A stretch of DNA of 64,000 nt. It comes from Escherichia coli. GTDB lineage: Bacteria; Pseudomonadota; Gammaproteobacteria; Enterobacterales; Enterobacteriaceae. Under the pieces are notes generated by a model, which worked only from the letters and a program-made list of their open reading frames with translations, did not search any database and was not told the DNA's origin. The DNA is taken from NCBI RefSeq assembly GCF_030013205.1, contig NZ_CP122648.1; one strand, given 5' to 3'. Shown piece after piece: positions 56,011 through 57,630 of this stretch. A program made the position numbers and the translations under genes. Within the stretch, counting starts at the first letter, position 1. The number at the start of each line of letters is the position of its first letter.

Positions 56011-56421
56011 GACTCCTCCTGATTATTAGCTCTTTTCAGGACATTTGGTATTTGGCTGAATACGCGTTTCGTTATACGTCGTGGTAATAACAACGGCTAA
56101 ACCTGTCGTAAACTGGCACTCTTTACCCACCTGGGTGGAGGTATACACTTTGGTGCCTTCCTTATACGTTAGAGAAACACCTTCCACTAAGGTTTTATCA
56201 TTCACCATAGAACCCGCTGCCGCGCCAACAGCTCCGCCGCCAACTGCACCTGCCGTCGTTCCGGAATTGCTGCCAGACCCGACGTTGTGGCCAATAACAC
56301 CGCCAGCGACTGCACCAATAAGCGCGCCGAAGGCTTGTGCGTTTCGTTTATTTTGGGAGTTGTCTAGGTGATGCTGCCAACTTACTGATTTAGTGTATGA
56401 TGGTGTTTTTGAGGTGCTCCA

Positions 56422-56697
56422 GTGGCTTCTGTTTCTATCAGCTGTCCCTCCTGTTCAGCTACTGACGGGGTGGTGCGTAACGGCAAAAGCACCGCCGGAC
56501 ATCAGCGCTATCTCTGCTCTCACTGCCGTAAAACATGGCAACTACAGTTCACTTACGCCGCCTCTCAGCCCGGTACGCACCAGAAAATCATTGATATGGC
56601 CATGAATGGCGTCGGATGTCGCGCCAGTGCACGCATTATTGGCGTTGGCCTCAACACGATTTTCCGCCACTTAAAAAACTCAGGCCGCAGTCGGTAA
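56422..56697 (+). CDS. insA: IS1 InsA
   Basis: 91-aa [46 protein letters not shown]... Confidence 0.9.
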
Positions 56698-57119
56698 CCT
56701 CGCGCATACAACCGGGCAGTGATGTGATTGTCTGCGCTGAAATGGACGAACAGTGGGGCTACGTCGGTGCTAAATCACGTCAGCGCTGGCTGTTTTACGC
56801 GTATGACAGGATGCGGAGGACGGTTGTGGCGCACGTCTTCGGTGAACGCACTCTGGCCACACTGGAGCGTCTTCTGAGCCTGCTGTCGGCCTTTGAGGTC
56901 GTGGTATGGATGACGGATGGCTGGCCGCTGTATGAATCACGCCTGAAGGGAAAGCTGCACGTTATCAGCAAGCGTTATACTCAGCGCATTGAGCGGCATA
57001 ACCTGAATCTGAGACAACATCTGGCAAGGCTGGGACGGAAGTCACTGTCGTTCTCAAAATCGGTGGAGCTGCATGACAAGGTCATCGGGCATTATCTGAA
57101 CATAAAACACTATCAGTAA
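56616..57119 (+). CDS. insB: IS1 InsB (transposase made as InsAB' by -1 frameshift)
   Basis: 167-aa ORF overlapping insA in the -1 frame; conserved ...[27 protein letters not shown]... Confidence 0.8.
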
Positions 57120-57630
57120 GTTGGAGTCATTACCGTTGTCTACGGCAACTTTTGCGGGAAGAATGGAAATAATATTAACGGTTTTAGTTTCTTGTTTGGT
57201 ATTCAGTTGATCGGTTTGATAAACATCGGCGGCATGATCATCAGCATTTGACTGGCATCCTGCCAGAGTGAATGACGCTAACATTACCACAGGCAGAAGA
57301 CATTTTTTAAATTTCATCACTATTCCTTGTTATACACATTACGAAAAATAAGACATTTAAGATCATCAAAAGAGGAAAGTAAATGTATTGCGTATTAAGG
57401 AATAGATTAAATTTATTAAAATTCATGTGGAAAATAATTTATAAAAATACATCATTAAAACATATGTATTAATTTTATATTTATTTCGCAGCCAAACAGG
57501 ATAAACATCAGTCAGGACAAAGACGTAAAATTTAAGATGAAAGAATATCTGCCGCTTTGATAATCCCAAAGAGCAAAAGCATCCGACAGCGAGGTGCCGT
57601 TATGTTCTGTGAAAGTGGAGAAGGTAACCG

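Follow-up and report, generated by a model that had tools for sequence, protein, structure and literature searches.

IS1 moves by means of InsAB′, a protein made by -1 frameshifting at an A6C motif, and leaves a target duplication of 8 or 9 bp at each insertion, the 8-bp outcome being the less common of the two (PMC12428005). YfgH is reported to be a lipoprotein of the outer membrane on which the integrity of the envelope depends: in Escherichia coli K-12, deletion of yfgH causes sensitivity to vancomycin and to SDS plus EDTA, and lowers the levels of outer-membrane proteins (PMC3219608; bioRxiv 10.64898/2025.12.22.696046). In the 64,000-nucleotide stretch of E. coli DNA analysed here (‘the window’), yfgH is interrupted by a complete IS1. 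We are very nearly certain that yfgH received this copy, of an IS1 isoform frequent in porcine E. coli, by transposition in the ancestor of a small sub-clone, and that YfgH was lost as a result. The sub-clone belongs to the enterotoxigenic or Shiga-toxin-producing E. coli associated with pigs. The features of the locus are collected in Table 1.

Table 1. Features of the interrupted yfgH locus, in window coordinates
Feature	Position	Strand	Remarks
yfgI (DUF5384)	55471..56010	-	intact; 15 bp downstream of yfgH stop
yfgH 3′ fragment	56026..56366	-	nt 179-519, glycine-zipper 2TM; PGAP pseudogene ‘missing N-terminus’
8-bp duplication GTTGTCTA, left copy	56359..56366		exact
IS1, complete	56367..57134	+	isoform with 93.4% DNA identity to K-12 IS1A
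IRL, left terminal inverted repeat	56367..56389	+	23 bp
insA	56422..56697	+	GTG start, 91 aa; NF050000 zinc-binding domain match; zinc-finger/HTH repressor and N-terminal part of transposase
insB frame	56616..57119	+	listed ORF of 167 aa from ATG; stop 57117-57119
TTAAAAAAC A6C slippery motif	56671..56679	+	in insA frame; programmed -1 frameshift from insA to insB′
IRR, right terminal inverted repeat	57112..57134	-	19/23 positions match IRL
chimeric ORF from yfgH 5′ fragment	57054..57320	-	88 aa: 62 native and 26 IS-encoded
8-bp duplication GTTGTCTA, right copy	57135..57142		exact
yfgH 5′ fragment	57135..57320	-	codons 1-62, signal peptide and LAGC lipobox; PGAP pseudogene ‘missing C-terminus’

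As read from the sequence, the element is exactly 768 bp in length; its left end begins with GGTGATGCTGCCAACTTACTGAT at position 56367, and its right end closes with ...ATCAGTAAGTTGGAGTCATTACC, the last base of which is 57134. A degenerate pattern for IS1 ends matched two sites in the entire 64-kb window, namely both ends of this copy (shuffled sequence is expected to give 0.00), and this is therefore the sole IS1 in the window. Translation with a -1 shift at TTAAAAAAC produces an InsAB′ of 232 aa, which is recognized by the NCBIfam model NF033558, ‘IS1 family transposase’ (transpos_IS1), with 242.8 bits (E = 2.8e-72; cutoff 100). The element thus has the length, the 23-bp repeats starting with GGT, the insA/insB′ pair with its A6C frameshift, the transposase-model match and the 8/9-bp duplication by which members of the IS1 family are known. 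A consensus promoter and terminator scan of positions 55300-57800 also detected an inward-facing promoter-like site (CTGCCA-16-TATGAT, 56374-56401) that overlaps IRL. The ORFs, ends and frameshift motif being intact, this copy is apparently functional and may be able to move.

K-12 IS1A is a close counterpart: it has the same 768 bp with no indels between the two, and shares with the window's element the imperfect 23-bp repeats, the overlapping insA and insB′ frames, the A6C motif and the length of InsAB′. The two differ by substitutions at 51 of 768 nucleotides, and their InsAB′ proteins are 94.4% identical in amino acid sequence. The RefSeq/PGAP label for the element is only ‘IS1 family transposase’ (WP_236281370.1), with a note of ‘programmed frameshift’.

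The original prediction, which was made from the sequence of the window, had described a complete IS1 with intact insA and insB between 8-bp direct repeats, and both parts of that description agree with what we found. On neither side does the match continue into a ninth base pair; that two fixed positions should share an 8-mer by chance has a probability of approximately 4^-8 = 1.5e-5. On the coding strand of yfgH the duplicated 8-mer reads TAGACAAC: it is present as a single copy at nt 179-186 of K-12 yfgH, and it is likewise single-copy in the yfgH of A30 and W13-16, where this site is intact. A duplication of 9 bp, not 8, accompanies two further simple insertions of IS1 into yfgH, described below, and one other copy of the window's isoform. 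As to mechanism, we envisage that InsAB′, the product of ribosomes that slip by -1 on the A6C motif, joined the IS ends to a target cut with a stagger of 8 bp; repair of the resulting gaps then generated the GTTGTCTA duplication.

In-silico excision of positions 56367-57142 (i.e., the IS1 and one copy of the repeat) yields a single minus-strand ORF of 519 nt. The original prediction had proposed this excision, and a comparison with K-12, as the check on its claim that the two halves of yfgH rejoin as an ORF of about 171 codons. They do rejoin in one open frame, but the codon count depends on the start: it is 172 from the GTG that is annotated in K-12, and 171 from the next ATG. The rebuilt gene is identical in length to K-12 b2505, from which it differs by 10 nucleotides and one amino acid (A12V). 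The LAGC lipobox, the glycine-zipper 2TM domain and the yfgG-yfgH-yfgI synteny are common to both, and pdeF is a further neighbour of the window's yfgH. The protein predicted from the rebuilt gene has a lipoprotein signal peptide with the lipobox in the context ...FTLAGCQ, and a match to the glycine-zipper 2TM family (Pfam PF05433, E = 7e-8) at residues 73-114; no NCBIfam model reached its cutoff for YfgH or YfgI. Unlike b2505, yfgH as it stands in the window is a pseudogene, split after codon 62 by an IS1 in the opposite orientation to the gene: no uninterrupted frame contains both lipobox and glycine zipper, and the longest N-terminal ORF (88 aa) is without the zipper.

The other copies of this isoform offer a wider view of how it is distributed. 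A copy with at least 99% identity occurs in only 150 of 9595 matching records. Many chromosomes and plasmids of porcine E. coli contain identical copies, and among the matches listed, the top-ranked ones at 100% are all from pig or wild boar. Genomes of the clone each have approximately 19-24 IS1 places. Six more 768-bp copies of exactly this isoform were examined (in K_EC180, W13-16, P13-6 and UMNF18). One of them has a 9-bp target duplication; at the other five, which adjoin selB, dcuC, rcsA and permease fragments, none was found. These copies without duplications suggest that IS1-mediated deletions, or recombination between IS1 copies, are frequent in porcine E. coli. They also favour a different account of the element in yfgH, in which it was delivered by IS1-IS1 homologous recombination or by a composite rearrangement instead of by simple transposition. 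At yfgH, however, the duplication is exact, and on either side the sequence runs collinear with K-12 and W13-16; the insertion is therefore simple and unrearranged, and we attach next to no probability to a recombinational origin. None of the results of this analysis contradicts a simple insertion of IS1 into yfgH.

Simple transposition, which the original prediction had favoured, also accounts for the K-12-like length of the rebuilt gene and for the state of the locus across the species. Of 5426 complete E. coli genomes, 5400 contain the empty site as rebuilt over 200 bp, in a single place that is always within an annotated yfgH, and many of them match it at 100% identity. The occupied site (1341 bp, covering both junctions) was recovered at 100% and in one piece from only seven genomes, all of them porcine: K_EC180 from South Korea, and ETEC1748, ETEC4067, ETEC4069, ETEC4070, ETEC4071 and ETEC4079 from Belgium. 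In the records for these carriers, the PGAP annotation shows two incomplete pieces of a yfgH pseudogene and, between them, an IS1 family transposase whose frameshift is marked as programmed. Since IS1 is multi-copy in this clone, and assemblers can misplace such repeats, we considered whether the IS1 in yfgH might be an artefact of assembly. That seems to us exceedingly improbable: the junctions are identical in seven separately assembled complete genomes from two countries, and neither a perfect 8-bp duplication nor the exact restoration of the ancestral allele is expected of a misassembly. K_EC180 was sequenced by both PacBio and Illumina (PMC8071739).

The closest relatives of the carriers place the transposition in time. 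A 24-kb part of the window aligns with ETEC4079 as a single piece at 100% identity. Across the 5.9 kb that follows the IS1 on its right, identity is approximately 100% in the seven carriers and in 10 further porcine or wild-boar genomes, the next genomes being at 99.6%. These ten equally close non-carriers are the O139:H1 strains W13-16 and P15-25, together with ETEC4068, ETEC4075, ETEC6333, ETEC6334, ETEC1701, EC556, EC571 and EC581. An annotated yfgH lies under the match in all ten; in W13-16 and EC556, the two that we inspected in detail, it is a full-length CDS (WP_014639259.1). Furthermore, with the IS1 excised, the window locus (which starts at the prophage junction, spans yfgI, yfgH and yfgG, and ends in pdeF) has 0 mismatches to W13-16 over 2639 bp. 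Given that yfgH is intact in relatives with identical flanks, the insertion arose within the porcine clone, after its split from those relatives. It is recent on the scale of the species, and to that extent the original description of it as recent is upheld, but it is shared by a clone of seven isolates: the insertion marks a lineage, has been inherited on two continents, and is not private to one strain. Several different deletions in the adjacent prophage are younger than the insertion. Public annotation already includes the event, since RefSeq annotates the IS1 and both yfgH fragments, and it is an ordinary gene knock-out.

Several other features of the window deserve description in their own right. 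A prophage of approximately 29 kb (26217-55378) has inserted at the 3′ end of guaA, with a 17-bp direct repeat at its two boundaries (ATTGAGTGGGAATGATT, 26217-26233 and 55362-55378); its integrase adjoins guaA and its lysis cassette adjoins yfgI. The prophage looks defective: the genes for the major capsid and capsid cement proteins, among others, are partial, and neither terminase nor portal is annotated. It is longer in ETEC4070 and ETEC4071, and shorter in K_EC180, which is without approximately 5.7 kb that is present in the window and for this reason was rejected as its source. No prophage lies at this site in W13-16 and EC556, the closest relatives with intact yfgH. A gene in its virion-core block (approximately 42023-43720, plus strand), next to genes for a T7 gp14-like protein and an SLT transglycosylase, is called ‘exodeoxyribonuclease VII large subunit’ by RefSeq; it is probably a misnamed phage internal virion protein. 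Over the full 64 kb the window and the RefSeq sequence of ETEC4079 show two differences: G/A at 39247, and a run of A7 versus A6 at approximately 47102-47108 that directly precedes a terminator-like hairpin. With no other differences, the window must come either from ETEC4079, in a different version of its assembly, or from an isolate nearly identical to it.

Outside the prophage, pdeF (yfgF, encoding a c-di-GMP phosphodiesterase; 58174-60416, plus strand) is a pseudogene with two lesions: a frameshift in which a run of G5 has become G4 (approximately 58216-58219), and a CAA to TAA change (Q378*, 59304-59306) that is common to the wider porcine clone, including W13-16 and EC556. The stop probably predates the frameshift, because EC556 is without the latter, and the frameshift may be either a later event or a homopolymer sequencing error. 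The genes for the sinH inverse autotransporter and for a 2680-aa protein with adhesion domains (10149-12326 and 13479-21521, plus strand) are annotated as intact in ETEC4079 and as ‘frameshifted’ in K_EC180. Over this stretch the window and K_EC180 differ by only one mismatch and two gap openings, and errors in the sequencing of homopolymers in one of the assemblies may account for the discrepancy.

The lineage of the window is not alone in having an IS1 in yfgH. In A30, from a horse, the gene is broken by IS1A with a 9-bp duplication, GCGGGAAGA, 21 bp from the site in the window; in CB209, from a human, it is broken by an IS1 with a 9-bp duplication, GACCCGACG; and in GmM062, also from a human, an IS1X4 lies at yfgH, most of the gene is deleted and a duplication is absent. 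These three disruptions are independent events, with other insertion points and other isoforms. In other E. coli, varied IS1 isoforms occupy many positions in the A+T-rich yfgH-yfgG and yfgG-pdeF spacers, which correspond to 57143-58173 of the window; ZH177, LR-03, B7A, ECA64, C51 and EC2001 are examples. That interval looks like a recurrent landing zone for IS1, as judged from a biased sample in which the search joined only those copies that are in the orientation of the query.

These additional insertions bear on whether the loss of yfgH was neutral. A selective account would hold that absence of YfgH, or altered expression of yfgI, is advantageous in some animal-associated E. coli, with IS1 acting as the mutagen. 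In keeping with this proposal, four different IS1 isoforms have hit yfgH independently at four positions (in the window lineage, A30, CB209 and GmM062), further IS1 copies lie 30-180 bp upstream of yfgH in ZH177, LR-03 and B7A, and the insertion that we describe persists in isolates from both Belgium and South Korea. Yet there are approximately 59,000 chromosomal IS1 places in 4970 genomes (these being places, not independent events), so that a few hits are expected in any non-essential gene. IS1 prefers A+T-rich DNA, and the yfgH-yfgG spacer has a G+C content of 34%: this preference could explain the clustering upstream of yfgH. Moreover, the site is kept intact in all but a few of the complete genomes that we searched, and a phage-receptor screen and a Dub-seq study refer to yfgH only incidentally; neither supports an advantage of its loss. 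We therefore regard selection for the present insertion as improbable. A broader formulation, in which yfgH and its upstream spacer are a recurrent IS1 target that has been hit convergently and retained because loss of the gene is advantageous in gut- or animal-adapted lineages, strikes us as slightly less probable again. Our preferred reading remains a single transposition of a porcine IS1 isoform into yfgH, followed by inheritance within the clone.

What does this transposition mean for YfgH? Because the cut after codon 62 is upstream of the glycine-zipper domain, yfgH is almost certainly inactivated in the window lineage, as far as this can be judged from sequence; that the insertion is inactivating was also the original prediction, and it is consistent with the PGAP calls of both halves as pseudogene pieces. 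The remnant of the gene would encode the signal peptide, the lipobox and approximately 40 mature residues, continuing into 26 residues that are encoded by the IS, with the glycine-zipper domain missing. The 3′ fragment, in which that domain is encoded, lacks both a start codon and a signal peptide. Loss of the glycine zipper should abolish the function of YfgH in the envelope.

The insertion may also affect yfgI, which is probably co-transcribed with yfgH, since it is on the same strand and begins so soon after the yfgH stop. An inserted IS1 is classically polar whichever way it faces. Because of this polarity and the probable co-transcription, expression of yfgI is probably reduced. The consensus scan of 55300-57800 found no minus-strand promoter, not even for an intact yfgH, and it is thus uninformative on yfgI expression.

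Taken on its own terms, the event is textbook IS1 biology in a non-essential envelope gene, with little import beyond the bookkeeping of strains. For that purpose the allele is a clean marker of one sub-clone of porcine pathogenic E. coli, represented by the seven complete genomes, six Belgian and one South Korean. According to a recent report, YfgH stabilises the outer membrane when the envelope is under stress. The carriers, which are predicted to be without YfgH, might tolerate detergents, chelators and large antibiotics somewhat less well.
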